Shown: positions 1,019-58,053 of the stretch, piece after piece
Position numbering within the stretch: position 1 is the stretch's first letter
Layout: every line of letters starts with the position of its first letter
Source of the DNA: a virus
Lineage: Duplodnaviria; Caudoviricetes
Direction: 5' to 3' (one strand)
Virus record (IMG/VR): IMGVR_UViG_3300006133_000005
Span: 13,740-77,739 of that record
DNA: 64,000 nucleotides
Made by a program: the position numbers and the translations under genes
Notes under the pieces: model-generated
What the model was told of the DNA's origin: nothing
The model's database searches: none
What the model saw: only the letters and a program-made list of their open reading frames with translations

Positions 1019-1291
1019 TTACTGAATAACAAGATAAGCAACCATAACAGTTCTCTCTACCTCATCTTCTTTGATTTCATCAAATCCTGGCTTGATATAG
1101 AGGTCATGACCCTTAGTAGCTAAAATACCTCTTGCACTTGCAATAGCTTTGTACATTTGGTTTACTGCACTCGCACCCACACCTCTTACTTCTACATCAC
1201 AACCCTCTTCAATACTGACAACAATACTGCCAGATAACTGAGGGACGGGGGACTTAGAAGACACCTTAATTACTTTCCTTTTAGAGTTCAT
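1019..1291 (-). CDS. spoVS: Stage V sporulation protein S homolog
   Basis: IKVSSKS..., GVGASAVNQMYKAIASARG, PGFDEI...ERT match the SpoVS pattern (KVS.KS, AIGAGALNQAVKA.AIARG, PAF..I.....ERT). Start moved to ATG 1291, which follows an AAGGAG RBS (track start 1318). Confidence 0.88.
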   Translation of the reverse strand: MNSKRKVIKVSSKSPVPQLSGSIVVSIEEGCDVEVRGVGASAVNQMYKAIASARGILATKGHDLYIKPGFDEIKEDEVERTVMVAYLVIQ

Positions 1292-1703
1292 TATCTTCTC
1301 CTTTCTGGTAACTTTCATAATTATTTCTGTAGTTACCTATTACTTTAGCTACAACAGCATCACTCTTAAAAAGACCGTGCTGTCTGCTATCATAGCTTAC
1401 TAATGTGTTATCACCTCTAAAGTCATAAAGAACGCCGTCGTTATGTGGATATATGTCCTTTAGTCTTTTTACAATGAAATAGGGACTTCCGTCTTCTTCA
1501 TCTCTTAAGTGGATAACGTATATTTTACCTTTCTTGCACTTACTTCTGTTGAAATGAAACAGTCTTCTGCACCAAAGTAATCTCCCCTCTCGGAAAGTCG
1601 GGAACATGGAATCACCCTTGACTTTCACGATAGGGAATAAAAAAATTAGGGGGAAAACTGTTGTCACGACAACAAGAATAGTTATGACAACCTTAAATAA
1701 CAT
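1281..1703 (-). CDS. lepB: Signal peptidase I (S26 family)
   Basis: N-terminal TM helix, box B GDSMFPT (catalytic Ser), box D IVKR (catalytic Lys), box E GDN...SYDSR. Confidence 0.9.
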   Translation of the reverse strand: MLFKVVITILVVVTTVFPLIFLFPIVKVKGDSMFPTFREGRLLWCRRLFHFNRSKCKKGKIYVIHLRDEEDGSPYFIVKRLKDIYPHNDGVLYDFRGDNTLVSYDSRQHGLFKSDAVVAKVIGNYRNNYESYQKGEDNEL

Positions 1704-5419: not shown

Positions 5420-5959
5420 TTAGTTTTTACCTACATTGTAATTTCTGTTTTCATCATCAAAATCAGACGTTCTTCTTGATACTTCCCTGCTCAAAAGGAA
5501 TATAGCATCTTCAATATTGGCTATGTTGTAAGTCAACAAGTCTCTTTTCTTACACCAGTCAACGTATTCATAATAATGAGGTTTCACATCTGGCTCTGAA
5601 TTTATAAGACGTTCCTTGGCAGTCTCAGAAAGCTTACTGCTGGATAGAGCTTTATATACCTTTTCACTTGAAACAACATAATTCCGCTTGGCATTTTCAA
5701 GTTCTATATCAACCCTACCTAATAGTGTTCTAAGATAAAGCTTCTGCTGTGTAAAAGCATTAAGAAACTCGCCCAATTCTCTTGAAGTAACCCCTGTAAT
5801 CTGTGCAGGAAGCATTAAAAAATCTTCATTTATATTTAAATTCTTTCCTGCTTCAAAGAATACTACACCCCGAGTTTCAAGGTTATCTTCAAGGTTGTTT
5901 AAGTATGTCTTGTGTAATTCTCTTGGGTTCATTTTCTTTCCACTCTTAATCTGTTTCAT
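5420..5959 (-). CDS. Hypothetical helical protein, possibly a UvsY-like recombination mediator
   Basis: All-alpha character and position in the recA/nuclease cluster; the function is an inference. Confidence 0.35.
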   Translation of the reverse strand: MKQIKSGKKMNPRELHKTYLNNLEDNLETRGVVFFEAGKNLNINEDFLMLPAQITGVTSRELGEFLNAFTQQKLYLRTLLGRVDIELENAKRNYVVSSEKVYKALSSSKLSETAKERLINSEPDVKPHYYEYVDWCKKRDLLTYNIANIEDAIFLLSREVSRRTSDFDDENRNYNVGKN

Positions 5960-11928: not shown

Positions 11929-12783
11929 TCATATGTTATTTTTTTTAAATACACCCTTGATACTTGATTTTTTTTTAGCAAGAACAGCTTTATTCTTAAG
12001 AAGAGGTTCATATTCTTCGTCATCTTCTTCGTCCTCGTCTTCATCATAGCTAACAAGATTTTTACGTCCTTTGTACTTATCTCTGGAAGACTTATCTCTT
12101 CTCGGACGTTCCTCGTAATCATCTTCTTCGTCCTCGTCTTCATCATCCTCATCAGCATCATAGTCAGGGAGATACATTTTAAGCTGTTCCTCAACAATTG
12201 CATACAAAGACTCCATAGTACCGTCAAAAGATTCTTTCAGCTTATCAGGTAACATATTAGAAATCTTAGCCTTTGTAAGAGGTGATACCTCATCAGTTCT
12301 CTCAATCATATAAGAGGTATCTGTACCTGTTCCTGTTCGAGAGATTTCATAGTCACGGTCAGTAAGACCATAACGATTAGACAGTCTGTCGAGCTGTGAA
12401 AGTACTCTTGTTCCTGCAACATAAAGCTTTAAAGAGCCCTTGACAGTCTTTTTCTTGCCCTTGCTATCTTTTGTTTCAAATTCAGTGTAGTCCCAAATAA
12501 GGAAAGCACCTTTGAATGAAGACTTGTTACCCTCATCACAATATGGGCAATCTTTGTCCTGTGTACACAGGAATGAGTCATAACACTCTTTTCCATTTTT
12601 GAACACCTTTACAGTATGCTCATTAAAGTTAATAGGCTCTTCGGTAAGGAAACGTACTCTTGCTTCTGCTCCGTCACCAGAAAGAAAAAAACGAAACAAT
12701 CTCTTACCCATTTGCTCTCTTATTTCTTCCTGTCTCTTCTTTTCCTGTCTTGCGGCTTCATAGCCTTTCTTAAACAATGCCAT
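11929..12783 (-). CDS. Single-stranded DNA-binding protein (gp32/gp2.5-like)
   Basis: RVRFL, CPYC Zn motif, very acidic C-terminal tail; lies between polA and primase. Confidence 0.75.
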   Translation of the reverse strand: MALFKKGYEAARQEKKRQEEIREQMGKRLFRFFLSGDGAEARVRFLTEEPINFNEHTVKVFKNGKECYDSFLCTQDKDCPYCDEGNKSSFKGAFLIWDYTEFETKDSKGKKKTVKGSLKLYVAGTRVLSQLDRLSNRYGLTDRDYEISRTGTGTDTSYMIERTDEVSPLTKAKISNMLPDKLKESFDGTMESLYAIVEEQLKMYLPDYDADEDDEDEDEEDDYEERPRRDKSSRDKYKGRKNLVSYDEDEDEEDDEEYEPLLKNKAVLAKKKSSIKGVFKKNNI

Positions 12784-12877: not shown

Positions 12878-13897
12878 CTATAGTCTTGGTAATTCTGTAA
12901 CCCCCATATACTTTGCTGACTCTATAACTTTAACTGTCTCTAACTCTCCCCATTCACAAGGGTCTTTTCCAAACTTAGGTGTGTATGAGGGCAAATAAAT
13001 ATGCAAATCCTTACTTAAATACTTCTTAGCAGTATCTAATAAAATCTTTCCTCTCTCGTCAAGGTCACAAAGTATAATAAGCTTTCTGCATCTGCTTTTT
13101 ATCTGCTCTGCTTGCTCTCTGCTGACCTTATTTGTCATTGTGGCTATAGCATTAGGAAAACCCCATTTATTAAGCATAATAACATCAAAACAAGCTTCTA
13201 CAAGTATTAGAGTATCTTCTACTACTTCAACCTTATCAAGCGGATAAATGAGCTTACTCTTTTTAAACTCATACACCTTAAATCTACCATTCTTAGGTCT
13301 GTCGGGGTCAATGTATCTTCCAATAACTCCAGCAAGCTTTTCATCTTCCCAAAAGACAGGTATAGTAACAGTCTCTTCTTTAAGGTCACGACCTATCATA
13401 AAGGTTTTCATATCCTCTTTGTCAAAACCTCTATCAAAGAAGTACTGATAAGTCTCTTTTCCGCTTTTAAAAGGTGCAAGAGTTGATAGAGGTTTTACTT
13501 CCCTATCATCTTCAATTTTATCTATGTCGATACATTTGTCCTCGTATCTGTGCAAGATTACATTTGAATCTCTTGACATAAACCGTGTAGTAATTCCGTA
13601 TCTCTGTCGGAGAAACTTTTCTGCTTTTCCAACAGATTTAAACCTGTCTGGTAAAGACTTATACAAAAGATAAGCTATAGACCCACTTTCACCACATGAG
13701 AAACAATTAAATACTTGTCCGTGTAAGTCTGGTTCGTCAGGAGGACAATAATCAATATCAATACCACATGACGGATTTCTCTCACCATGTATAGTACAAC
13801 AAAACTGTATCTTGTTACCTTTCCAGTCATTCATTTTAGGAGTGTCAAGGACATTTATTAATAAGTCCTCAATCTGCTCTTTGCTGAACACACCCAT
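12878..13897 (-). CDS. DNA primase
   Basis: Zn finger CTIH...PS...NCFSC; TOPRIM LVEACFD and DLD. Confidence 0.9.
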   Translation of the reverse strand: MGVFSKEQIEDLLINVLDTPKMNDWKGNKIQFCCTIHGERNPSCGIDIDYCPPDEPDLHGQVFNCFSCGESGSIAYLLYKSLPDRFKSVGKAEKFLRQRYGITTRFMSRDSNVILHRYEDKCIDIDKIEDDREVKPLSTLAPFKSGKETYQYFFDRGFDKEDMKTFMIGRDLKEETVTIPVFWEDEKLAGVIGRYIDPDRPKNGRFKVYEFKKSKLIYPLDKVEVVEDTLILVEACFDVIMLNKWGFPNAIATMTNKVSREQAEQIKSRCRKLIILCDLDERGKILLDTAKKYLSKDLHIYLPSYTPKFGKDPCEWGELETVKVIESAKYMGVTELPRL

Positions 13898-17383: not shown

Positions 17384-17707
17384 TCAATCGTCCAACAATG
17401 TATTTAAAATATTCTTACATAAAGTGAATGCTTTCCTTAATCTCTTCAACTCTACTATTGGATTGGGCGTATGCTCTTGTATATACTCAACATCATTAAT
17501 AGCATCATACACAGCATCAAGTAACTCCTCTAACACATCACAACAGGATATGCTTTCCCCAACTAAGAAATCAGCGAATCCCTCACCTAAATGGTCTGAC
17601 AAGTATTTCTTGTACTCCTGCTCATCTCGTATATACACACTGTCACCGTCATTTGTAAAAAGGAGTTTATCAGGGTCTACTCTTAAATGCAATTCTTTGT
17701 CATTCAT
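17384..17707 (-). CDS. Hypothetical protein
   Basis: Coupled ORF. Confidence 0.55.
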   Translation of the reverse strand: MNDKELHLRVDPDKLLFTNDGDSVYIRDEQEYKKYLSDHLGEGFADFLVGESISCCDVLEELLDAVYDAINDVEYIQEHTPNPIVELKRLRKAFTLCKNILNTLLDD

Positions 17708-18354
17708 GGTTTAACACCTCTTTTCAAACGCTTTTTAAAAGCAGTGTTCCTCTTATCTCTACTCTCAATAGTAATAGGTACTGTATTACCTCTTAGCAAG
17801 CTCATACAGCTCTCTCCATATCTCTCTGAAAGTATATCTACATTAAGATTTGTACAGATAATAGTGACAAGACCGTGGTCTTCTCTGTATCTTAAAAGGT
17901 CTTCTAGTATTGGTGCGGCAACTTTACTATCAATCTCTTTTCCAACTTCCTCGAGAACTAAAAACTCAACTGCTTTGTAGTAAGTATAAAGCTCGTCCTC
18001 AAACTGGTCTTTTTCTTCTACACTTCTTGCTGACCACACTTTAGTATACTTGTCTATATAGTCAACAAAGGTTGCTCTCCTTGTAGTGTATCTACGCTTG
18101 TACGCTTCTTTAAGGATAAGGCAGGAAAGCATTGTCTTTCCTACGCCGTTACTACCACATAAAAACAACCCCTTGTTATTTTCAAAATTCTTATCAAGGT
18201 TATCAAGGTACTCCCTGACAAAATTCTTTACCTCTTTCAAACAACTGTTTGACTTTGTGTCAAAATCTGATAAATTTGTATCAAGAAACGACTTAGGAAT
18301 ACCTATAAGACTCAAGCTTGTAGGATTTACATAAGTCCTTAATGGTCTACTCAT
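17704..18354 (-). CDS. DnaC/IstB-like AAA+ ATPase (helicase loader)
   Basis: GLFLCGSNGVGKT, FLVLEEVGKE, IICTNL, SLLRG. Start moved to ATG 18354 (MSRPL, RBS GGAGA); track start 18468. Confidence 0.85.
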   Translation of the reverse strand: MSRPLRTYVNPTSLSLIGIPKSFLDTNLSDFDTKSNSCLKEVKNFVREYLDNLDKNFENNKGLFLCGSNGVGKTMLSCLILKEAYKRRYTTRRATFVDYIDKYTKVWSARSVEEKDQFEDELYTYYKAVEFLVLEEVGKEIDSKVAAPILEDLLRYREDHGLVTIICTNLNVDILSERYGESCMSLLRGNTVPITIESRDKRNTAFKKRLKRGVKP

Positions 18355-18898
18355 CTCTCCAGTCTCCAATCTTTGTTTTATTACTCTTAGTCTTTTTCCA
18401 CTCTCTCTTGTCGGTATAGCTGTTTGACTTACTCTTTTTATCAATGTAACTGTCATTCGCCCAATCAATGCTATCTTGATAAATGGTATTTACCCAGTTA
18501 CTTGCAAGGACTGTTGGCTGTGTCCTGCTTATGTCAAGATATGTCTGGTCACCAGAAAAAATAAACTCTATCATAAGAAGTATTTCTGATATAGAGAAAC
18601 TTTCCTTTAATCTCTTAAAGATACCCATATCACGCTTCATGTTAGCTATAACATACTTAGCTCCTGCTTCTCTGGACTTCTCTCTAAAGAAGTAGACTAA
18701 ATCATGTGTTGTAAACCTGTTGAAGCTTTGCTCCAAATCATTATACTTTGAAAGAAAATTTTCGTAGCTTGTATGCTGTGTACCACTTGTTTTCTTACGT
18801 TCTGGAACTCCTTTAAGGTCTGTATTGATGCTTTCTGTGGATTGACCTCTTGCTTTTCTAAAGCAGTCTGAAAGGTCTGTATTGAACTTTATACCCAT
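18347..18898 (-). CDS. Hypothetical protein, possible replication initiator partner of the loader
   Basis: Coupled to the DnaC-like ATPase and first gene after a promoter; the function is inferred from synteny. Confidence 0.45.
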   Translation of the reverse strand: MGIKFNTDLSDCFRKARGQSTESINTDLKGVPERKKTSGTQHTSYENFLSKYNDLEQSFNRFTTHDLVYFFREKSREAGAKYVIANMKRDMGIFKRLKESFSISEILLMIEFIFSGDQTYLDISRTQPTVLASNWVNTIYQDSIDWANDSYIDKKSKSNSYTDKREWKKTKSNKTKIGDWRDE

Positions 18899-40745: not shown

Positions 40746-41225
40746 TTAATCTTCAAGGAAATACTCAAACTGGATTGTGAGTGTTTCGATAGCTACATCA
40801 TCAGAAGTAGCATCAAGGTCACTACTCTCCCACTTTGATACCCAAGCTTCTGCAAGCTTGTAAGTTCTTCCGGGATTTCCGAAACGGTCAAGATGTTCAA
40901 TAACAATTGTCTGTCGGAAGTCAGGGTTTGTAAGAGTTTCCTTAATCAAGTCAGCAAGAGAAGAGTCCTGATAAGCGCCACGCTCACAAGTAACTTCACC
41001 TACTGTGGGTTTACCGGGGAGCTTGTGTGTGTACTCGTAACCACCCTCACCATACTCAGCAACACCTACTTCAAGAGACAGCCCACTTACAGTCTGGAAA
41101 CCCATTTCAGACGGAAGTCCAGGAATGGTAAGTCTGAAACGGAATTTCTGCAAAGGGTCAAGGGATGCTGTTCTTGCCGCATGAGTAGTCATAAACATCT
41201 TTTTAAGTGCATTAGTCATTTTCAT
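40746..41225 (-). CDS. Tail tube protein (T4 gp19/Afp1-like) with a 16-aa N-terminal leader
   Basis: DPLQKFRF, GF..VSGL, Y.EGG....HKLPG, V...RG, W.S.DLDA.S..VAIE.L.I.FE; RBS GGGAGGTG supports the MKMTN start. Confidence 0.92.
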   Translation of the reverse strand: MKMTNALKKMFMTTHAARTASLDPLQKFRFRLTIPGLPSEMGFQTVSGLSLEVGVAEYGEGGYEYTHKLPGKPTVGEVTCERGAYQDSSLADLIKETLTNPDFRQTIVIEHLDRFGNPGRTYKLAEAWVSKWESSDLDATSDDVAIETLTIQFEYFLED

Positions 41226-41241
41226 AAATTACACCTCCCTA

Positions 41242-42711
41242 TTAAGCTGTTGTAAGTTCGTGAGAGATACGGAAGATAATGAATTCCGCAGGCTTCTTTG
41301 TAGCATACCCAATCTCACAGATAAGCTTACCTTGATTGCGGACACTGACAGGGTTAAGGTCTTCGTCACACTTAACATAGTATGCTTCACCTGCATTACC
41401 ACCAAAGAATGCTCCCTGCTGATAGAGACTGTTGAGATAGTCCTGACAAGTCGTTCTGACTTTAGTCCACAGTGTGGAGTCATGAGGTTCAAATACAAAC
41501 CGCTGTGTAAGGTCATAAATGTTCTTCTTAAGCGTGATATTCATGTACAAATCAGATACATAGTTAAATTCGGGGTTACAGCTTCTTGCTCCCCATACAC
41601 AGATACCATAATTGGTCTTAGGTAAAAGAGCATTAATGCCCTTTGGATTGAGGATATTTGTAGACTCAAGCGTGTAAATCTTCTGTACATCTACTGCACC
41701 CCTAATAACTGCTTCTGTTCCGGCAGGTGCTTTCCAGAAACCTCTTGAATCTGAAATACGAGAATAAACGCCACAGATATGACCACAAGCAGGAACAGCA
41801 ATTAAAGCGCCGCTTGAAGACAGTGGATTTACAACTTTAATCCAAGGTGCATATAGTACAGCGTTCTTACCATCAAGCTCATTTCTTAATGTCTGTAGCA
41901 TAGCATCTGTATCTGTTTCCTGACCCTCACAGATAGCAATCCGGTATTTATTAGCTGTACAGTAGTCAGCAACATCTACCTGTAAGGCGTTACTTGCACC
42001 GGGGATAGCAACAAGTCTGATGTCCTCCATAAAATCAAACTGTTTGAGTGACTCTTTATATACAGCATCAGGAACAGGAGCGCCACTTGTAGCAAGACCG
42101 TCTTCTCCACCTGCAAAATCAACCTTAATGTCAGCAGAGGGTTTATTTATCTGCTTAGTAAGGTCAGTAACCTTAATATAGTTGCTCTCAGAGTTGATAA
42201 TATCTGCAAAGCAACCTTGAATGTTTACACCGTCTTTTAAATTACCCCAAGACTCAACAACACTTCCGTTGTACTTAACCTTAAGAGTAAAGACAGGTGG
42301 ATTAACTTCGTCATTATATTCACTTGCTGGAATTTCAACGGAGATTTTATCTCCCCAAGCTCCCTCACTTTTTGCTTCAAATGCGACACCCGATACTGTA
42401 GCTTTAGCGGACTTAGCGTTATACGTTGATGCAGTCTTATCAGTTACACGCTGTACAAAACACCTAATACCACCGTTCTGGAAAAATCCGTACACAGCAT
42501 ATGCAAGCTTACTGTTTGCAAGGAAAGCAGAATCCTGTCCTGTTGCAAATGTGGTTAAATAAGAATTCCATGATGTAATGAGTACGGGAACTCCTACTGG
42601 TCCAGTTGCGGCTACACCTGTAAATGCGGCAATAGGAGCAGTACCTACAGGCATCTTAACAACCTGTTTAATGTCCTCAACATATACACCGGGGGTTAAA
42701 TATTCAGCCAT
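41242..42711 (-). CDS. Tail sheath protein
   Basis: YLTPGVYVEDI, FF.NGG..CFV.RV, KAPAG, LNPKGIN, WGAR, VFEP.D..LW, KPAEFI.FRI. Confidence 0.96.
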   Translation of the reverse strand: MAEYLTPGVYVEDIKQVVKMPVGTAPIAAFTGVAATGPVGVPVLITSWNSYLTTFATGQDSAFLANSKLAYAVYGFFQNGGIRCFVQRVTDKTASTYNAKSAKATVSGVAFEAKSEGAWGDKISVEIPASEYNDEVNPPVFTLKVKYNGSVVESWGNLKDGVNIQGCFADIINSESNYIKVTDLTKQINKPSADIKVDFAGGEDGLATSGAPVPDAVYKESLKQFDFMEDIRLVAIPGASNALQVDVADYCTANKYRIAICEGQETDTDAMLQTLRNELDGKNAVLYAPWIKVVNPLSSSGALIAVPACGHICGVYSRISDSRGFWKAPAGTEAVIRGAVDVQKIYTLESTNILNPKGINALLPKTNYGICVWGARSCNPEFNYVSDLYMNITLKKNIYDLTQRFVFEPHDSTLWTKVRTTCQDYLNSLYQQGAFFGGNAGEAYYVKCDEDLNPVSVRNQGKLICEIGYATKKPAEFIIFRISHELTTA

Positions 42712-42923
42712 TACTTATTAGCACCTCCTGATTTTTCTTTAGTGGACTTTGTTTCTGTAACATCTGTTAAAGAGACAATTCCTAATCTCTCTGCTTCAAG
42801 GAGTGCATCACTTACAAGGTCACCCTTGATAGTAACTGTCTCACCTGACTGTAAAGAGAGGTTAGTACCGTCTGAAAGAGTTACACTAAACAAATGTCCC
42901 CTGAGTTCACCTACTTTAGTCAT
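42711..42923 (-). CDS. Small hypothetical virion-module protein
   Basis: GGAGG RBS; coupled to the sheath gene. Confidence 0.6.
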   Translation of the reverse strand: MTKVGELRGHLFSVTLSDGTNLSLQSGETVTIKGDLVSDALLEAERLGIVSLTDVTETKSTKEKSGGANK

Positions 42924-42937
42924 AGTAAACTACCTCC

Positions 42938-43528
42938 TTAGGACTTTTTAGTTTGAATGTCAACCTCTTTTACAATGTTGACCTCGTTTAGCTTTTCAGC
43001 ACTCTCTTCATCAAGCTCTGCCCAAATTCGATATGTCATTGATGTGCAATACACCCTACTACCGTCTTTGAGTTTATCAAGCTTTCTGATATTACTGCCT
43101 TTCTGCAAACAGTGAGTATATCTTAGTACACCACCACTGTCCACAACAGGCAAGTTAAATTCTCGATTTACTTCAAACTCCCACAAAGCAGTCATGGCAT
43201 TCATGTCGGTTTGAAGTGTACTCCACAAGTCAATTTGATACATTAATGAGTAGGGTACTGCTGTTCTCTCCATGTTTACTTTACCTGTTTCATAATTAAA
43301 CCCTCTCGGAACTCTGAAAGGATAGTATCTAACTTCCTCTCGTCTGCTTATGTTAAGGTTATATATAGTAACCATTGGATAGTTTTCTTTTTTGAAATCC
43401 TCATCAGCTTTCCTTACTCTGACGGGAACAGGAACTAAAAGTCCCTCACGATTTTTAAGCTGTACAACACTCTTAATGAATTTAATAAGACCTGCATCAA
43501 TCTGGTCATACCAAACAGTTCCGTTCAT
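42938..43528 (-). CDS. Tail terminator / sheath completion protein
   Basis: YP.VTI....,P..L.YQID.W; located immediately before the sheath gene. Confidence 0.6.
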   Translation of the reverse strand: MNGTVWYDQIDAGLIKFIKSVVQLKNREGLLVPVPVRVRKADEDFKKENYPMVTIYNLNISRREEVRYYPFRVPRGFNYETGKVNMERTAVPYSLMYQIDLWSTLQTDMNAMTALWEFEVNREFNLPVVDSGGVLRYTHCLQKGSNIRKLDKLKDGSRVYCTSMTYRIWAELDEESAEKLNEVNIVKEVDIQTKKS

Positions 43529-43532
43529 TCAC

Positions 43533-44006
43533 TTAACCTCCCTTGATTAAGTCTTTCAAACAGTTTTCCCAATGCTTTTTGATTGTGTTCTCTAACTCTT
43601 CAAAGGTGGGACGTATTAAGGGTCTTGCAGGAATGTTGGCTGTACCGTATTCAAGATAAATCATAAGGTCACTAAACTTAAGTCCACTTGGATGTTTAGT
43701 CCATGCATCAGCACCTATAAAATAGGTTACCCCATTTTTAGGTGCTTTTACTTTTCGCACTTTCAGATTGTCTTTTAAGAAACCTGTTTCAACATAAATT
43801 GTCTCGTCACCACTTTTAAGAGATATTGTATGCTCTGATAGTGGTGTCCAATTCAAATCTTGTGCATCTATATGACCTCTTATCTTTTCAAGTATCATAT
43901 CTCCGTCCTCTTTTAGCTGTGCAGAAAATGCAGGAACTATTTTAGAAGACAAAGCTTGTAATACTATACCTGCTTTTGTCCAAGCACCAAACTTACTTAT
44001 TCTCAT
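43533..44006 (-). CDS. Neck / tail-completion protein (HK97 gp10 / virion morphogenesis-like)
   Basis: W.PLS..TI..K, ..TG.L, ..YLEYGT.NIPARPLIRP. Likely start is MRISK (track start 44060). Confidence 0.7.
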   Translation of the reverse strand: MRISKFGAWTKAGIVLQALSSKIVPAFSAQLKEDGDMILEKIRGHIDAQDLNWTPLSEHTISLKSGDETIYVETGFLKDNLKVRKVKAPKNGVTYFIGADAWTKHPSGLKFSDLMIYLEYGTANIPARPLIRPTFEELENTIKKHWENCLKDLIKGG

Positions 44007-44007
44007 A

Positions 44008-44466
44008 TTAATTACTCCTCTGCAATGAGTCTTTCTTTGCTTCTGTAGCGGAAAACTCAAAAAACTGCCAAATGTCGGCTACTAATGTAGAGGGTTCTAC
44101 AGTATCTATTAAATACTCTGTCCCCTCATACACTAACTTTGCTTTTCTCATTTTCTCCCAATCAGCTTCATGCAGGAAAGGTATTCCCAATGTTAAGAAT
44201 TGTTTGGTTGGTACTCTGAACTTAGCTGTTCTGTCAACAGTTACTTCCTCGTCAACACCTTTTGGGTGACTGTATGTTACTTTAGCTATCAACTCATAAG
44301 GTTCAAGATACTTTTTCTTTGGAGTTTCACCATAAATATCATCTACTTCTGTGTCCTCCTCATCTAAAAAGTAAAGAAACAAGTGGTTGCAAAGTAAAGT
44401 ACTATACACCTCTTCGATACCGTCAAGGAATGCTTGTTGTATGTCATTGTTAGGTTCATAAGCCAT
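44008..44466 (-). CDS. Head closure / neck protein
   Basis: Synteny; D.IYGE..K.Y.EP motif. Confidence 0.55.
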   Translation of the reverse strand: MAYEPNNDIQQAFLDGIEEVYSTLLCNHLFLYFLDEEDTEVDDIYGETPKKKYLEPYELIAKVTYSHPKGVDEEVTVDRTAKFRVPTKQFLTLGIPFLHEADWEKMRKAKLVYEGTEYLIDTVEPSTLVADIWQFFEFSATEAKKDSLQRSN

Positions 44467-45323
44467 TACTCATCACCGCCCTCATCAGGTTTAGTGATTT
44501 CTATGTCAGTTGGCTCACATGTAGGTTCTTCACTCTCTTCATCAAAAGGCCCTGTCTCTATTTCAGACTGTGCATACCCACAAAGAGTTGCCATATTAGT
44601 TGCTTGCACCGCTATATAGTACTTAGTCTTTTCTGCAAGACCTGTTACTCGGCAATGTACTTGGTGAATGTCTTTTATTTCAGCAACCATTTTAGCACCG
44701 TCAGCTATGTGAGACTTCAAATTAAACAAGTCTACAATAGGCTCTGTAGATATATAGACTTTATAACGGTAAAAACGACTTATGTTTTTCACACTCCACC
44801 AAAACTCTACTGAGTTTTCAGTGATAGTACCAACATAAAGAGTTACTTTAGGGACTGCGGCATTCTCATAGTTATATCGAGTACCATAACGGTCACTCAA
44901 TGTCACACTATAAGACTTAACTGTTCCTATTCCGTCTTCTCCACCGTTTTCTAACCAGTCACCATACTCTTTGTCTGCTTGTGCTATCAACTTCATGTAG
45001 TGGTCGAATCTCTGTGACCGCTTCAAGTAGTTATTGTTATCAGCACCCATGTCAAACAGCGGAGCTTCTTTGACTGCAAGAGTGTAGTATAACTCTTTCT
45101 TTGCCAGAATAATGACACCATAAACAGCATCTTCCGGCAAGTACTTAAGTGAGGGAGTATCAGAATAGTTCCTTGACATGGCAAGATTTAAATAGAGCAA
45201 TAAGTCCTCATCAGTCATACACAAATACTGTGGGTCTTGCACTGTTATCTTGTCCTTGTCTTGAACATAAACTGATATTCTTAAAAACTGTATCATTTGC
45301 TCAACCGTCATAGTTGAGAACAC
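44466..45323 (-). CDS. Head-tail adaptor with fibronectin-III domain
   Basis: Adaptor-like N-terminus; FN3 pattern (WW...Y.VY...VTGL...TKYYIAVQA). Confidence 0.6.
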   Translation of the reverse strand: MFSTMTVEQMIQFLRISVYVQDKDKITVQDPQYLCMTDEDLLLYLNLAMSRNYSDTPSLKYLPEDAVYGVIILAKKELYYTLAVKEAPLFDMGADNNNYLKRSQRFDHYMKLIAQADKEYGDWLENGGEDGIGTVKSYSVTLSDRYGTRYNYENAAVPKVTLYVGTITENSVEFWWSVKNISRFYRYKVYISTEPIVDLFNLKSHIADGAKMVAEIKDIHQVHCRVTGLAEKTKYYIAVQATNMATLCGYAQSEIETGPFDEESEEPTCEPTDIEITKPDEGGDE

Positions 45324-45330
45324 CTCCTGT

Positions 45331-45657
45331 TTACAGGGGTTTCAAAAGACCTGACTTATTGAGAATGTCCTTTACTTCCTGTGGGACTACTATCTGTACT
45401 CCCTTTTTCAGAAAGTATCTTGTACCTCCGATACAGCAGGTGTGGTTAGTGTTAGGGAGAATTTTTACGTTCTTCACCGCAGGCTTCTGTTCAATTGTCT
45501 CATTAACAGTTACCTCATCTACACCCTCAACGGAGTTTTCAACAGGATTTTCAACACCCTCTGTTTCGCTGACATTTGTAGTTACTTCTTCCTCTGGTGT
45601 GGAAGTTTCCATAATAGTTGCACCATTAGTCTTAGGCTTAAACTTACCTGTAGCCAT
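45331..45657 (-). CDS. Small head-associated hypothetical protein
   Basis: Follows the MCP gene; acidic N-terminus, C-terminal VP.EV...L..SG.L. Confidence 0.55.
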   Translation of the reverse strand: MATGKFKPKTNGATIMETSTPEEEVTTNVSETEGVENPVENSVEGVDEVTVNETIEQKPAVKNVKILPNTNHTCCIGGTRYFLKKGVQIVVPQEVKDILNKSGLLKPL

Positions 45658-45704
45658 AATTCTACTCTCCTTTCTACATTATTACTTCTGAGATATTTTA
45701 CGGT

Positions 45705-46754
45705 TTAGGCAGTAACGATTACAACACCGTACTCATCATGGAGCTTACCTACACCAAAGATAGAGTACCACGCAAGACTTCTCTTTCTGCCGAAGTCTTC
45801 AACACCGTTATCACGAAGCTCAACAGGAAGACCATATGCAATGCCGTAATAAGCATCACCGAAAAGAACAGCTTTATACTTATTAACATCACCCTTTAAC
45901 TCCTCATCATATGCAGGGTCGTCTTCTGGAGCGGCACCATTACACATAAGAGTTGTTTCAATAAAGCGGCAGTCGTCAATTCTTCCGATTTCACCTGTAA
46001 AGAGCTGTTCGGGTGCGCCATAGTTAGAAGCATTAACCCAAGCTGGGTCGTCACGCAGAGTTCTTGACTGGTGAGGATGAACAAAGCAAACCCAATAAGT
46101 ACCACCGACAGCTTTAGGGGCATTGTTTGTAGAAAGAATTTCGATAGCATCTTTAATTGTAGACACCTTAAGAATAGATGTAGCATCAAGACCTGCCATA
46201 GTAGTATTCTTAGTACCGTCAGACTTAGAAGCATAAACAATATTTGTACCAGACAGAGCCGCATCCCTTAACTCACAGTCAACAACCTGTGCATAGTCAC
46301 GACCAAGAAGTGTTGTAGCAGAAGCCAGTACATCATCAAAAGAAGTCTGTACAAGCAATTCACTTACAGAAACAGCGTTACCATACTCAGTAACAGTGAG
46401 CTGTTTTGCAGAACCGCTAAGAGCCTGTGTAACCATAGACTTAGCTTCTTCAAGCTTGCCGCCGAGTGTAAGGTTGTTATATGTAAGCATAGAAATAGTC
46501 ATACCCGGTTCTGTGCCGAGTTCAGTCTTTGTAGTAGCAAACTGCATAAATCGCATATTAGGGAGAGCCTTAAACTCAATCTCCTTAGAGTAAACAGTTC
46601 TGATTCCCTCTGTGAACTGAGTACCGCCGTTTGTCTTCCCTAATTCAGTAGCAACGCTTAAATTGGGTGCGTAGACTGTACCTCCGGAATTGGTTTCTGC
46701 ATGAGCAGTCGTAAACAAACAACTTAAAAATGTCTTAATAAACTTCTTATTCAT
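45705..46754 (-). CDS. Major capsid protein (HK97 fold, N4-gp56-like) with a 19-aa N-terminal leader
   Basis: L.F.QFA..K, PG.TI, L.E, EYGNAV..S, ..F.HP.Q...LR.D..W, F.GEIG, ..D.GR...LAWY; GGAGG RBS, with no alternative Met nearby. Confidence 0.92.
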   Translation of the reverse strand: MNKKFIKTFLSCLFTTAHAETNSGGTVYAPNLSVATELGKTNGGTQFTEGIRTVYSKEIEFKALPNMRFMQFATTKTELGTEPGMTISMLTYNNLTLGGKLEEAKSMVTQALSGSAKQLTVTEYGNAVSVSELLVQTSFDDVLASATTLLGRDYAQVVDCELRDAALSGTNIVYASKSDGTKNTTMAGLDATSILKVSTIKDAIEILSTNNAPKAVGGTYWVCFVHPHQSRTLRDDPAWVNASNYGAPEQLFTGEIGRIDDCRFIETTLMCNGAAPEDDPAYDEELKGDVNKYKAVLFGDAYYGIAYGLPVELRDNGVEDFGRKRSLAWYSIFGVGKLHDEYGVVIVTA

Positions 46755-46796
46755 TTTATAAATTCCTCCATTTATATAGTATTAAATGCTCAAGTC

Positions 46797-47615
46797 TTAC
46801 TTAAGACCTAAACTCTTGCGAAACTCCTTGTACTCGTCAGAAGCAGGGTCAAGATTTCTCACATACTCAGCATCAAATCGTCCTGTATCTGTTCCTGCAT
46901 TTTCTGTAGGATTCATAACAGGGGGCTTCTTTACTGTAGGCTTAGCGGCAGTTCCTTTATTGTGCGAACCACCAACAGGGTTTCCGTTATCATCAACAAG
47001 ACCAAGTTCTTTCTTAATTGAAAGGGACTTCTCTTTTGCCTTTGCTACAGAAGCATCAATTTCTTCTTTGGTACTGCCTATAATGTCGTCAAGGAAAGAT
47101 GTAAGTACAGTCTCTTTATTAGCCGCTTTCTGTTCTGCAAGATAAGACTTAACTTCATACTCCTTTTCAATCTCTGCCCTTAAAGCCTCAACATTGGGAG
47201 TTTCCTTTTTCAGCTTTTCATTTTCAGCAATAAGTACATCAATCTGTGCATTGAGTTTCTTCACTTCCTCTGTGGTAATAGCACCACTCTTGTAAGAGTC
47301 AATCTCCGCAGTTAAAGTATTGACAGTCTGTGTCAAGTCCCCAATCTTAATGAGGTTGTCATTACCTGTCTTAACAAGCTTTGCGTTATCCTCTTCAAGC
47401 TTCTTGATACGAGGGTAAAGCTTTTCTTTCTCCTCCTTACGAGCCTGTGCTATAAGCTGTTCATAATTAATCTGAGGTGTTGCAGTACCACCACTGTTTC
47501 CATCATCTGGAACAGGGTCCACCTCATCAGCGTGTACATTCATACACAAGAAAGATAATGCTTTACTCAATACACTTAATTTCTTTTCTGCTATAATACC
47601 TCTTAAATTACTCAT
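46797..47615 (-). CDS. Capsid scaffolding protein with a 29-aa N-terminal leader
   Basis: Coiled-coil, located between portal and MCP, AR..EK.KLY motif, C-terminal Y..FRK.LGL. Confidence 0.8.
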   Translation of the reverse strand: MSNLRGIIAEKKLSVLSKALSFLCMNVHADEVDPVPDDGNSGGTATPQINYEQLIAQARKEEKEKLYPRIKKLEEDNAKLVKTGNDNLIKIGDLTQTVNTLTAEIDSYKSGAITTEEVKKLNAQIDVLIAENEKLKKETPNVEALRAEIEKEYEVKSYLAEQKAANKETVLTSFLDDIIGSTKEEIDASVAKAKEKSLSIKKELGLVDDNGNPVGGSHNKGTAAKPTVKKPPVMNPTENAGTDTGRFDAEYVRNLDPASDEYKEFRKSLGLK

Positions 47616-47712: not shown

Positions 47713-49242
47713 TTACTGTTTGGGATTTTCAACGTTTGCCCCATTAGTTTCTATGTTCATTTGCTCTTGTGGTGTTTGACCATTCAAGAAACCACTATTT
47801 AACTGTGGCTGTTCGATTCCATAGATAGTTGGATTCTTTTCTCTGTCCTCATCTATCTCTTTAATTTTATTCTCAATGTCTTCACGACCCATTCTCTTTA
47901 ATGCGCCAATTCTACTTTCAAGTCCTACTTGAAGTTCCTGCTGTAACTGCTGTAATTCGAGTAAGGTGTCCTTTGGGAGAGTGTCAGGAAGTGAAACCTC
48001 TGTGTGTACAAAATCCCTCATTGGTACAGTATCAGACTTAGTAATAAGACCCTCTAACAGTGAAACAAGTATAATAAGCTCATTAAGTCTTTCAAGACCG
48101 TCCTCTGTAGACTGTCTCTTTACCCTTGTCTTTTCGATAAGTGGTAAATTCATGTACTGTAGTGCAACACCACTTGTATTACTTATAGACTTTGCACCAC
48201 CTAAAACAGTCTCAGGTATTCCTCCTATCTCGCACATTTCAAGCTTAAGAGCCTCAAGGTAGCTATTACTTGCGGCTAAATCACCGTTCAATTCAAGGTT
48301 CTGCACTTTTGCATCTTTAGGAAGTCCTCCCCAAAGCTTATTAGCTCCTTTTTCAAGATTTCCTATTTTAGCACCAAATACAAGAGTAACAGGTGCGGCA
48401 TGATAGTCCAGTATTTCACTTACATTAGACTTTTTAAGGTTATACTCCACATTCATAGGGATAATGTTCTCAATGTCACTAACTCCCTCGTTACGTCCTG
48501 CAAGAATAAAATTCTTTACTTGAATAAACGGAATAACACCATACTTATTAACAACTGTCTCAGGCTCTTTATTACCCTCATAAGTAGTTACACTGTCTTT
48601 AGTCCACACTTGCTTATAAGTCTTAAGTACTCTCCTTGACTTAGAATGTAAAAGACCATACTCTTCGAGTTCATAGTACTGATAGACTATAGACAGCTTT
48701 CTTAATACACCTCTCTGGTGTGGGTCAAACTCAGGGAACACTACACTGGTAGGTTGTACTAAAAGTTTAATTCGTCCGTCAGGGTATTTACCATAAGGGT
48801 CGTCACCGTCAAGTTCTTCTGGTGAGTAGTATCTTACTTGTACCCAAGCTTCACCTGTAACGGACTTCATTTGACCTAATTCAGTAGTGAAGATATACTG
48901 ACTATTATCTTCCCAAACATCTTCAAGATACTCAAATAAAGTTCTTCCGTCATTTGTAACGGTTGTGTCTGAAAGGTCTTTATAAACTGTAAAAGTAAAT
49001 CCTTTACCCAACTCAAAAGCTACAAACTTATTTACAAAAGCCGCACAGTAGTTTACTGTCACTTCTGGTGAATCTACATCAGGCATTTCTTCCCAATGAT
49101 AACCCTCGTAGAAATTCCAAAATCTCTTACACTTAGTAAGTCTTTTGAGTTGTTGGTCGTCCAAGTCATTGGAAAGCTGTGTAACAGTAGCACCTATATC
49201 AATAAAGTCTCTTACATCACGTTTTCTTTCAAAACCTAACAT
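47713..49242 (-). CDS. Portal protein (SPP1 gp6-like)
   Basis: Y.G.HW, ..NY....V.K, SVTGEAW.., N.YG.IPF, G.SDI, SGVAL. Confidence 0.88.
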   Translation of the reverse strand: MLGFERKRDVRDFIDIGATVTQLSNDLDDQQLKRLTKCKRFWNFYEGYHWEEMPDVDSPEVTVNYCAAFVNKFVAFELGKGFTFTVYKDLSDTTVTNDGRTLFEYLEDVWEDNSQYIFTTELGQMKSVTGEAWVQVRYYSPEELDGDDPYGKYPDGRIKLLVQPTSVVFPEFDPHQRGVLRKLSIVYQYYELEEYGLLHSKSRRVLKTYKQVWTKDSVTTYEGNKEPETVVNKYGVIPFIQVKNFILAGRNEGVSDIENIIPMNVEYNLKKSNVSEILDYHAAPVTLVFGAKIGNLEKGANKLWGGLPKDAKVQNLELNGDLAASNSYLEALKLEMCEIGGIPETVLGGAKSISNTSGVALQYMNLPLIEKTRVKRQSTEDGLERLNELIILVSLLEGLITKSDTVPMRDFVHTEVSLPDTLPKDTLLELQQLQQELQVGLESRIGALKRMGREDIENKIKEIDEDREKNPTIYGIEQPQLNSGFLNGQTPQEQMNIETNGANVENPKQ

Positions 49243-49246
49243 ATAC

Positions 49247-50938
49247 TCATCTCCTTTTAGCAGTAATTCTATTCCTCATAAGCACTTGCTTATTTTGGTT
49301 TCTACTTCTTGCAGTAAACTTATTTCTAACCGTTTCAGTATTGTTTACTTCTGTTGCAAAACTTGTACCCCAAACAGCTAATGCCCAACTGTCTGGGTAA
49401 TCGTCATGGGCATTTTTTTCATCAGGATGTGATACAACCATATTAGCACCACTCCAACCTTTTTGAAGCTCCCCTAACTGCTCTAAAAAGTCCTTATACT
49501 CTCTTGTCTCAACAGTATTAGGACCTGCGCATACTCTTGCTCTTCCTGCGACAATCTCTCTACTTAAATGCTTATATAACTCCGACTTTGATTTTGGCGT
49601 AAAGATATAGGGTATTACCTCACAACTCAAATTAGCTCTAAGCCTGTGAGATAAAGAAGCCTCCCTTGTTGCATCACACACAACTCTTGCTAACAAGAAA
49701 TGACTTAAATAGTCCATTATCTGTGGGTATTGCTCTTCATAGTCTGGCTCATTGGATATACACAACCAGTCTTTTATGTAGGAGTTATAGGCAGTGTATG
49801 TCTCCTCTTCATTATCTTCATTTGTAAAAGACTCAAGAATAACAGGCATATTCCAGTTCGTTTCAACCATAGTAATAACAGTATCGTCACCCTTACCTCC
49901 CACGTCTATTCCTGCAACATGGGTAGCACTTCTGTCATACAAAGACCTTTCAAGTAAAGGCTCTGTATTCTCCTGCTCGAACTTCTCAATGTCAACAAAC
50001 ATACCTCTTTCAATAATCCATTCAAGACAATAAGACATTCTAAATTCATCAGACTTCTCTCCCAGTCTCTTCTTCTCTTTTTCCACATATTTAGCATACT
50101 TAGGGTTATACTTAGCGGCAATAGTCCAGTCATACTCAAAGTGATTTCGTATGTGTGACTTTCTCGTCATTGCTTCCGCTTTATTTCTCTGAATAGCATC
50201 ATAAAAATCTCCTTTAAAAGTAGTTGCTGTCCCGATTTTTACAATAGTAGCATTATAAGCCGCACCCATAGGGTGTATTGACTTTCTAATCTTATAGTTA
50301 GAAATATCTTGACACTCCTCACAGATAATCAACTTAAATGATTCTCCCTCAATGTTAGAGCCGTCACTTGCAGAGATAGCCGTAGCAAAAGAGTTATTTG
50401 ACAATGATACTGTCTGTCCATTAGAAGTACTAAAGAATATTCTAAACTCAGGGTCTTCCAATACTGCGAGAGCAGACTTGCACTGTAAACGAGATTTGAG
50501 TCGGTTATATGTAGTCTGAGCCTGTCTTAAGGACGGAGCGAAAATACCTATCCACATTCCATTCTTAAACATTGTAAGTCTACTATCATCTGCAAACATA
50601 GGCATATTAGCCATTTGAGGTAGTATAATCATCATACCACCAGTTGTTGTTGCAACAGTTTCAGACTTACCACTCTGTCTTGCAAATAAAGCGGTGATTT
50701 CTTCACCGTCATTTTCAAGAACAGACCTTATAACTCTCTTTGAAAACTGCTCCTGATAGGGGAAAAATGAAACACTGGAATATAGTCCACAAAAGGAAAA
50801 AACAGTATTTACTAATTCTGTAGTAGGTACTCTTCCACAATAAGCTACACTTGGTATTAATAAATACTTCTTGAACCTTTTTTCAGCTTTACTTAAAAAG
50901 TTTCTAACTACCGTCTTAATATCAGCTTTACTTAGCAC
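49247..50938 (-). CDS. terL: Terminase large subunit
   Basis: FARQSGKS, FAPSLRQA, ICEECQD, GIDVGG..D.TV, HDDYPDS. Confidence 0.93.
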   Translation of the reverse strand: MLSKADIKTVVRNFLSKAEKRFKKYLLIPSVAYCGRVPTTELVNTVFSFCGLYSSVSFFPYQEQFSKRVIRSVLENDGEEITALFARQSGKSETVATTTGGMMIILPQMANMPMFADDSRLTMFKNGMWIGIFAPSLRQAQTTYNRLKSRLQCKSALAVLEDPEFRIFFSTSNGQTVSLSNNSFATAISASDGSNIEGESFKLIICEECQDISNYKIRKSIHPMGAAYNATIVKIGTATTFKGDFYDAIQRNKAEAMTRKSHIRNHFEYDWTIAAKYNPKYAKYVEKEKKRLGEKSDEFRMSYCLEWIIERGMFVDIEKFEQENTEPLLERSLYDRSATHVAGIDVGGKGDDTVITMVETNWNMPVILESFTNEDNEEETYTAYNSYIKDWLCISNEPDYEEQYPQIMDYLSHFLLARVVCDATREASLSHRLRANLSCEVIPYIFTPKSKSELYKHLSREIVAGRARVCAGPNTVETREYKDFLEQLGELQKGWSGANMVVSHPDEKNAHDDYPDSWALAVWGTSFATEVNNTETVRNKFTARSRNQNKQVLMRNRITAKRR

Positions 50939-55308: not shown

Positions 55309-55662
55309 TTAACACCGCCTTTTAAATGTTCTGTATATTTTATGCTTCCTCATAAGTCTGTTATACATCAAATAAAATTCGGCGTTATGCATAACACCTT
55401 TAACTCTCTTAAAATCAGGTCTGCTCCACTGCATATGGTGAACCGACTCATGTAAAGCAGTAGAAAAGATTTTTTCATAAGGGTATAAATTAGTCTGATT
55501 GTCGTCCTCATATACAAACACAGTAACTTCTTTAGTGTTAGGGTTATATCTTCCATAATAGGTCTTACTAAAGGGTTTAAGGGTTAATTTAAACCCTTTA
55601 GTATCAATATTAAGTGCTTGTAAATCGGACAGTAACCGACTTTTTAGCAAGTCAATAATCAT
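55309..55662 (-). CDS. SprT/WLM-like zincin metallopeptidase domain protein
   Basis: YYGRY, TALHESVHH (HExxH), HNAEFY. Confidence 0.7.
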   Translation of the reverse strand: MIIDLLKSRLLSDLQALNIDTKGFKLTLKPFSKTYYGRYNPNTKEVTVFVYEDDNQTNLYPYEKIFSTALHESVHHMQWSRPDFKRVKGVMHNAEFYLMYNRLMRKHKIYRTFKRRC

Positions 55663-57408: not shown

Positions 57409-58053
57409 TTAATAGAAAAAATTCCAAGTTCCGTCACCCTCAAAATACAGGTAACTTCCAAACTCATCTGAATGGCTAAAATAGTAGTCCACTGCTTGAA
57501 TTACACTATCAGTGACCTGATAAGTATAAGATTCACTGGGTATGTAACCTGAGAACTGGTCAGGTTGTGTAAGTACCTCATAAATTGTATTAGGGAAGTC
57601 ACTTGAATTTACCCTGTTCATGACTACACTTACTATCTTTGCTTTTTCTTCAACAGAAACATAGTCACTACCATATTCTCTACCTACAAGGTTACACAAC
57701 ATTACCCTCTCTAATTCAGAAATACAATAATCTGTTACCTCATATGGAATTTCTTCTTCCTCCGCACACTCTGTAACAGACTCATAAATAACTTCTGAGG
57801 GACTTTCCAATGTCTCTGGTATAGTTTCAGTAATAACAGTCGTAACCTCTGTTGTAGAGGACGTGAGAGTGGTTTCCGTTGATGTTGTAGTTATGATTGT
57901 ATCATCTACAGTCTCGTGCACAGCAGATTTTGTTGCAAATTCTGTCACCTTTGTGTCATCACTAACAGTATTGGTCTGTTCGTTATTAGCTGAACAGACC
58001 AAATAAAGTAAAACCTGCATAGACATAAAAAATAAAATAAGTTTAATCTTCAT
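57409..58053 (-). CDS. Secreted SleB/CwlJ-like cell wall hydrolase (Hydrolase_2)
   Basis: Signal peptide, Thr/Glu-rich linker, LVGRE (catalytic Glu), V..V.MNRV.S..FPNTI.EV..Q..QF. Confidence 0.82.
   Translation of the reverse strand: MKIKLILFFMSMQVLLYLVCSANNEQTNTVSDDTKVTEFATKSAVHETVDDTIITTTSTETTLTSSTTEVTTVITETIPETLESPSEVIYESVTECAEEEEIPYEVTDYCISELERVMLCNLVGREYGSDYVSVEEKAKIVSVVMNRVNSSDFPNTIYEVLTQPDQFSGYIPSESYTYQVTDSVIQAVDYYFSHSDEFGSYLYFEGDGTWNFFY

Follow-up and report, generated by a model that had tools for sequence, protein, structure and literature searches.

Short N-terminal leaders on head and tail proteins of a BCD7-related myophage, and a miniature signal peptidase that may remove them

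Known maturation systems and the present phage

Tailed phages are thought to rely on few kinds of maturation protease: assemblins of the HK97, T4 and herpes types, enzymes of the ClpP and S49 types, and Prp in some Firmicute phages. In T4, the capsid, scaffold-core and small internal proteins are tagged, and gp21 (family S77) cuts at L/I-x-E inside the prohead. Among the filamentous phages, which assemble in the membrane, the leader of the M13/fd procoat is removed by the host signal peptidase I. Phage 80alpha has a capsid protein and a scaffold that share a leader cut by Prp (PMC5744158, PMC9405229), for which the motif is (D/N)LQ(F/L)F'A(S/H)KK (PMC9405229). Considered here is a 64,000-nt stretch of phage DNA (the window), bases 13740-77739 of the complete, 77,739-bp virus record IMGVR_UViG_3300006133_000005, which has direct terminal repeats. 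The phage is a myophage related to Bacillus phage BCD7. Its major capsid protein (MCP), scaffold and tail tube begin with short leaders that share an ending, and it encodes a miniature type I signal peptidase of family S26. The explanation favoured here, with moderate confidence, is that the leaders are propeptides cut after Ala, most likely by the phage's own miniature signal peptidase.

The nearest functional system is that of 80alpha and Prp. In both cases several structural proteins have a common short N-terminal leader, a motif would guide a protease that is not of the prohead-core type, and S78, S77 and S49 enzymes are lacking. The differences are in the motif (x-[A/V]-[F/H/Y]-A here, NLQ(F/L)F followed by A in 80alpha), in the candidate enzyme (here a phage Ser/Lys peptidase with a transmembrane (TM) anchor, there a soluble host Cys protease), and in the putative substrates, which here also include the tail tube and two small basic proteins. 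T4 is similar in its common short N-terminal tag ending in a protease motif, and the small Arg/Gly-rich proteins of the present phage resemble T4 internal proteins. Unlike in T4, the tail tube is tagged as well, so cutting cannot be confined to the prohead. With M13/fd, the likeness lies in a phage coat protein whose leader is taken off by signal peptidase I (a prediction here), but the M13/fd leader is a true membrane-inserting one and the enzyme is the host's, whereas the present phage is tailed, assembles in the cytoplasm and would use its own enzyme. No phage signal peptidase that acts on virion proteins of tailed phages was described in the literature searched, nor did the searches turn up proteomics of BCD7 virions.

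The leaders and the predicted cut site

The MCP leader (46698..46754, minus strand) is 19 amino acids (aa) long and ends in AHA/E, the slash marking the predicted cut; the open reading frame (ORF) runs from 45705 to 46754 and matches PF13252/PF25209. That of the scaffold (ORF 46797-47615) covers 29 aa at 47529..47615 on the same strand and ends in VHA/D, and is followed by an acidic disordered stretch and then a coiled coil. The tube leader (16 aa, 41178..41225, also minus; ORF 40746-41225, PF06841 with E 3e-30) ends in THA/A, and the predicted mature tail tube starts ARTAS..DPLQ. GGAGG-type ribosome-binding sites precede all three starts, and an earlier note on this DNA had described these ORFs, start codons and leaders correctly. 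A genome-wide regular expression for the seven-residue ending finds only the N-termini of these three proteins and one internal site in the tape measure. With a weight matrix made from leaders of the clade, the three score 18-21 bits, as against a maximum of 8.5 bits at 17,701 internal positions of the same genome.

Two more candidate substrates, absent from the earlier note (as were the occurrence of the same system in BCD7 and the zincin considered below), are encoded upstream of the window, at 10995-11177 and 10730-10912 of the record, both on the minus strand. They are small, acid-free, Arg/Gly-rich proteins with short leaders ending in VHA and followed by QP. Homologues with leaders of 6-8 residues are found in the same place in BCD7 (gp023 and gp024) and in the related records G008, G010 and L203. 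Judging by sequence, they may be protamine-like internal head proteins. Both genes sit within a 7-deazaguanine gene cluster.

The distribution of leaders was surveyed in BCD7, a Bacillus cereus phage that is the nearest cultured relative (55% capsid identity, gene order alike), and in 80 IMG/VR loci that matched the capsid protein. Every locus with a capsid identity of at least 55% and the N-terminus on the contig has an MCP leader, BCD7 included. The scaffold leader is likewise found in all loci at this level of identity, and so, with one exception, is the tube leader. More distant relatives are Streptomyces phage BRock and many environmental contigs, with capsid identities of 43-51%; survey loci at or below 51%, BRock among them, are all leaderless. 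Leaders are 10-20 residues long in tubes, 13-26 in capsid proteins, 24-33 in scaffolds and 6-11 in the small basic proteins.

Some single cases were noted in the course of the survey. BCD7 has two gp19-like tube paralogues (L001:14599-15147 and L001:15264-15743), and only the first has a leader. G013 and G014 have a divergent tube-like protein with an N-terminus that fits the motif poorly. The Bacteroides-type capsids of Bacteroides phage BS162P1 (L002:8971-9969) and MT835482 (L004), at 39-40% identity, have at their N-terminus some 20 uncharged, hydrophobic residues and then A-G-A or A-I-A; these records are without S26, and the start codon may be misplaced.

Across 80 distinct sites the residue at -1 is Ala in 79 and Gly in one, and that at -3 is A (53), V (22), T (4) or S (1). 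The -4 position is mostly K/T/N/R, -5 and -7 are hydrophobic, and +1 is D/A/E/V/S/M/G and never Pro. As sequences, then, the leader endings obey the (-3, -1) rule of signal peptidase I, as the earlier note had proposed, and not the Prp rule. The His at -2 that it had also seen as common to the leaders is a trait of this phage and its close kin; in the clade as a whole, -2 is F/H/Y at 61 of the 80 sites and K, M, L, S or D at the rest. The clade matrix gives 13-21 bits for leader sites, while internal positions are mostly below about 10 with a few at 13-15, and the N-termini of the leaderless G023, G024 and BRock reach about 12 at most. Leaders within a genome are also more alike at P2-P4 than expected by permutation (p = 0.011, 0.001 and 0.006), as in L044, where all three end in ITAKA. 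The likeness may come from a partner common to the leaders, or from leader sequences being exchanged between genes.

One alternative is that host Prp, the cysteine protease that processes L27 in Firmicutes, does the cutting, between the aromatic residue and Ala, following the precedent of the shared capsid and scaffold leader of 80alpha (PMC5744158, PMC9405229). The host is probably a Firmicute, given the SpoVS gene, the GGAGG sites and the infection of Bacillus cereus by BCD7, and Bacillus hosts have Prp (PMC9405229). There are Prp-type leaders in distant relatives as well (see below), and one in the clade: in L045/L046 (G018), the MCP leader ends in NLQTF-A. This is the only one of the clade leaders with an L27-like Prp motif, and it may have been swapped in from a Prp-type phage. 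In the same genome, however, the scaffold leader ends in VFA and that of the tube in VSA. The would-be P1 residue is also variable (F, H, Y, K, M, L, S or D), with the residue two before it and that one after it fixed (the earlier note, too, had called the Prp motif different from this one); BCD7 leaders are unlike the Bacillus L27 extension; and cutting in the Prp register would leave one Ala more than is present in leaderless tube orthologues. Removal by host Prp is thus very improbable. G018 itself has S26 and lacks Prp.

The best guide to the position of the cut is the tube. In G010 (L028-L030), which has kept its capsid and scaffold leaders and S26, the tube is leaderless and starts M-ARTIAN..DPLQ. 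Distant leaderless tubes start M-[A/S/G]-R-x-x-x-x-DP, and leader-bearing ones read x-[FHY]-A and then ARTxS..DPLQ. Leaderless tubes thus start at the predicted +1 residue, and the junction after Ala is the natural N-terminus of the family; the earlier note's view that a cut here would restore a normal tube start holds for these orthologues. Scaffolds too resume after the leader with an acidic D/E-E stretch like that with which leaderless scaffolds begin. The tube register is the strongest indirect sign that leaders are removed at this bond, and from the alignments it seems very probable that they are cut off directly after the -1 Ala.

This agreement also bears on the idea that the leaders are kept, as permanent amphipathic tags that would serve in binding to membranes or chaperones or in the control of assembly. 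They are basic (median net charge +3 in 84 leaders), and their hydrophobic moment is higher than that of control N-termini (0.59 vs 0.45, p = 2e-14), as might be expected of such tags. But a near-invariant Ala at -1 and a small residue at -3, exactly at the mature junction, are hard to explain without a protease, one lineage has lost its tube leader precisely at that junction, and a helical tag is impossible with six residues. Permanent tags are therefore improbable, if less so than host Prp.

Least credible of all is that the leaders are true Sec signal peptides, with the proteins exported and cut by the host signal peptidase outside the cytoplasm. All of them have n- and c-region features, that is, the charged n-region and the -3/-1/+1 rule, and in a few MCP leaders the uncharged hydrophobic run reaches 11-17 residues. 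The h-region, on the other hand, which in a Sec signal is unbroken and some 10-15 residues long or more, enough for at least half a bilayer, falls short, as the earlier note had held in calling the leaders amphipathic and their h-regions too short for Sec. The median uncharged run is 8 residues, compared with 13-24 in the classical signal peptides of G036, an unrelated 230-kb record; the median of the best 10-residue hydropathy is 1.4, compared with 1.7-3.7 there; and many leaders have just 6-16 residues in all. The leaders therefore keep the n- and c-regions of a signal peptide and not a working h-region. One of six residues, such as M-M-K-A-Y-A, cannot insert in a membrane, and capsids must in any case assemble in the cytoplasm, where the DNA and the terminase are. 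The role of membrane tether that the earlier note gave to the leaders finds no support, since those of the small basic proteins and of some tubes, at 6-11 residues, cannot anchor in a membrane.

The miniature signal peptidase and its distribution

The candidate leader protease is a miniature type I signal peptidase of 140 aa encoded at 1281..1703 on the minus strand. Its score on PF10502 is 37.7 bits, well above the cut-off of 22.9 and in keeping with the S26 assignment of the earlier note; homologues in 12 related records are above the cut-off too. An N-terminal TM helix is predicted at residues 2-22, with a median hydropathy of 2.8 over 105 family members (Kyte-Doolittle, 19-residue window). 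Box B holds the nucleophile Ser32 in GDSMFPT, box D the general base Lys79 in VKRL, and box E is GDN..S.DSR; Ser32, Lys79-Arg80, Gly97-Asp98-Asn99, Ser103 and Asp105-Ser106-Arg107 are invariant in eight aligned sequences and present in about 20 that were inspected. An AlphaFold 2 (AF2) model (predicted local distance difference test score, pLDDT, 81.8) has SpsB (4wvj, 4wvh, 4wvg), SEC11A/C and SipA as its top Foldseek matches, and a search of the PDB with the S26 profile returned signal peptidases exclusively. Judged by its boxes and modelled fold, this is a true but extremely reduced S26 peptidase, with predicted activity.

It resembles the cellular enzymes SpsB, SipS and LepB in fold, in its N-terminal TM helix and in having the Ser/Lys dyad and boxes B, D and E, and its putative substrates follow the (-3, -1) rule, with Pro absent from +1. 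It differs in size, the phage proteins having 110-155 aa with nearly all of the segment between box D and box E (about 45 residues in the bacterial enzymes) gone, and in that its substrates would be cytoplasmic, with leaders too short or too charged for Sec. LexA, CI and UmuD, which belong to S24 in the same clan, are cytoplasmic Ser/Lys enzymes without a TM helix that cut after Ala or Cys and cleave themselves. The phage protein shares their fold, scores 26.5 bits on PF00717 and has LexA C-domains among its structural matches, but it has a TM helix and the S26 boxes, and its S26 score is the higher. The Cys content of the catalytic domains, 1.75%, equals that of the phage proteome, a figure for which there was no adequate comparison set; a complex prediction for S26 with scaffold residues 1-50 scored 0.00, was made without controls and is not used as evidence.

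The S26 gene is in an operon with a PDDEXK nuclease gene (1707-2159) and a SpoVS homologue (about 1019-1300, minus strand), the ATG of which overlaps the S26 stop region. The S26-SpoVS pair is conserved in BCD7 (gp031-gp032) and L203. A profile search for the family recovered 2,948 proteins at E < 1e-10, and the best 150 cluster representatives were all of 87-155 aa.

Within the set of relatives, S26 and the leaders go together. The gene is present in all 15 leader-bearing records that cover its locus (G000, G001, G003, G005, G007, G008, G010, G011, G013, G014, G018, G019, BCD7, G038 and G039). Eight further leader-bearing contigs tested lack it, and as they lack the adjacent SpoVS as well, they end before the locus. 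None of 13 leaderless relatives has it, three of which are 90-100% complete, and a clade-specific S26 profile was negative at E <= 1 in five leaderless relatives, those three included. BRock and G024 have SpoVS without S26, so the gene was gained or lost beside SpoVS. Of what the earlier note had expected of related genomes, the co-occurrence of leaders and S26 was thus found, within one clade, while conservation of an xHA ending was not.

Outside the clade, the leaders are of another kind. Distant members of the capsid family (24-31% identity, from human-gut contigs) carry Prp-type leaders, and MT836150 has a Prp gene of its own (PF04327, 37.7 bits; L199:8644-8946, plus strand) between portal and scaffold. 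Its scaffold and capsid have in common a leader with the ending HT[H/Q]MF before a D, which makes this a variant of the Prp-type system. Across the capsid family, then, a change of leader type goes with a change of phage-borne protease. This parallel change is the best circumstantial argument that S26 may be the functional counterpart of Prp.

More distant S26 matches were set aside as host-type enzymes in the 230-kb element or CI-like S24 repressors, and a word-based homologue search returned close relatives only. In the 230-kb IMG/VR record (G036/L167), a host-type signal peptidase is encoded beside a sortase-like gene and a VirD4/FtsK-like ATPase, and there are several large proteins with classical signal peptides; the arrangement is more suggestive of a module for conjugation or surface proteins than of the head system of a phage.

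Candidate enzymes and what the system would mean

The structural genes follow the order large terminase, SPP1-type portal, scaffold, HK97-fold MCP, neck proteins, sheath, gp19-like tube, tape measure and baseplate, and like nearly all genes of the window they are on the minus strand. Portal and terminase together make up the stretch 47713..50938, the portal (PF05133) at 47713-49242 and the large terminase at 49247-50938, both minus. There is no protease gene in the head module (terminase, portal, scaffold and MCP), nor any ORF between portal and scaffold; the gene of a conventional prohead protease usually has its place between the portal and the scaffold or capsid genes. The earlier note had remarked on this lack of a prohead protease, and it extends further: in the whole 77.7-kb genome, S78, ClpP, S77, S49 and Prp have no match at E <= 1, and Prp is absent from the five relatives searched as well.

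When a phyletic profile was made of all 104 ORFs, with six genomes that have leaders and three that do not, about 20 ORFs came out as clade-specific, most of them for fast-evolving structural or replication proteins. Among these, S26 is the sole recognisable protease of known AxA-type specificity. Several other ORFs were considered as hidden proteases and rejected: those at 5420-5959 and 18347-18898 look UvsY-like and DnaD/Phg_2220_C-like, and that at 11929-12783 encodes an SSB. A HELLH protein of 142 aa, encoded upstream of the window at 13253-13681 of the record (minus strand) between QueE and a QueC-radical SAM gene, matches no known family. It is present only in G000, G010, G019 and L203, and was rejected as the common protease because this amounts to three of the seven complete leader genomes plus a partial contig.

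A weaker rival to S26, although still a putative second clade-specific protease, is an SprT-like zincin of 117 aa encoded at 55309..55662 (minus strand), with weak WLM and Spartan matches. Its HExxH motif (HESVH) and a downstream His are invariant. It occurs in six of the seven complete leader genomes and, by the phyletic profile, in none of the leaderless relatives. It is the most concrete form of a broader alternative, in which the leaders are removed by some other enzyme (this zincin, an unrecognised phage protein or a cytoplasmic protease of the host), while S26 serves the processing of host or exported proteins, perhaps together with SpoVS. The topological difficulty of S26, the position of its gene in a metabolic/SpoVS operon distant from the structural genes, and the ordinary use of S26 on mobile DNA exemplified by the sortase-like gene and classical signal peptides of G036 all favour such an enzyme. 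But the rule at the cut site is the one that textbooks give for signal peptidase I, and we know of no such cut specificity among SprT/Wss1-type zincins. The zincin is also missing, even at relaxed thresholds, from G014, a complete genome that keeps its leaders; the remaining clade-specific unknowns resemble replication or recombination proteins; and the genome offers S26 no conventional secretory substrate, as it encodes no classical secretory protein that would need signal peptidase I. Another enzyme is on these grounds rather unlikely, though much less so than host Prp, permanent tags or Sec export. Separately, a 214-aa ORF at 57409-58053 (minus strand) has a lipoprotein-type signal, with a hydrophobic run ending in L-V-C and then S; from its sequence it is a possible superinfection-exclusion lipoprotein, which would be a substrate of signal peptidase II and not I.

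Several points besides the zincin weigh against S26 as the enzyme. Active sites of signal peptidase I normally face away from the cytoplasm, so that cytoplasmic virion proteins would be out of reach of a TM-anchored S26 unless its topology is unusual. To our knowledge, leaders of 6-11 residues are unlike those of any signal peptidase I substrate. The gene is some 45 kb from the head genes, in a nucleotide-metabolism/SpoVS operon, which is not the usual position of a protease. The genomes with S26 and leaders all belong to one monophyletic clade, and so represent one evolutionary event and not a repeated association. A second, independent lineage with both was sought in IMG/VR and protein collections, and none was found among the mini-S26 genes recovered, all of which come from BCD7-like genomes or from contigs that are too short to be assigned; as far as sampled, the mini-S26 family appears to belong to this phage clade. 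In one distant mini-S26 that was sampled, the neighbourhood is ThyX-S26-SpoVS-QueD, with an adjoining small basic protein that has a six-residue leader.

Charge distribution is an ambiguous guide to topology. Unlike SpsB, SipS and LepB, about 80% of the family lacks Lys and Arg ahead of the TM helix, and among the 105 homologues 74% have one or more within the 15 residues that follow it. Net charge differences across the helix centre on zero. The lack of charge before the helix, with the charges behind it, leans towards an N-out/C-in orientation of S26, but net charges are balanced.

Taking these points together, S26 has a slightly better than even claim to be the leader-cutting enzyme. From the comparisons described, we infer both that the leaders are cleaved and that S26 cleaves them. 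In this scheme each leader would open with basic residues, continue with a short hydrophobic stretch that is often amphipathic, and close with a recognition element of the form hydrophobic-[K/T/N]-[A/V]-[F/H/Y]-Ala, with the cut directly behind the Ala. S26, a Ser/Lys enzyme with a single N-terminal TM anchor, would process five proteins, namely capsid protein, scaffold, tube and the two small Arg/Gly-rich ones, outside the prohead and while these precursors are free or close to the membrane, in the manner of host Prp in 80alpha. Its active site would reach cytoplasmic substrates by way of, for example, an N-out/C-in orientation. A fuller version is more speculative, and we put it forward tentatively as possible rather than probable: that S26, its catalytic domain on the cytoplasmic face of the membrane or able to reach the cytoplasm by other means, is devoted to the maturation of head, tail and internal DNA-binding proteins, that the leaders are degenerate signal peptides in which the basic start and A-x-A have been kept, and that the whole evolved as an alternative to the Prp system of sister lineages.

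Since BCD7 is in culture and has every component, the system can be tested at once. Structural and proteomic work on this clade should take into account that capsid and tube proteins as annotated probably carry 6-33 surplus residues at their N-termini. Shared cleavable leaders on virion proteins are already known; S26 acting on cytoplasmic substrates would, if confirmed, be considerably more novel. A Ser/Lys signal peptidase would then be a new protease family in tailed-phage maturation and the first signal peptidase I to work on cytoplasmic substrates, and a single enzyme outside the prohead would connect the maturation of head, tail-tube and internal proteins. How a membrane-anchored signal peptidase comes to meet cytoplasmic substrates would be a further, cell-biological question.

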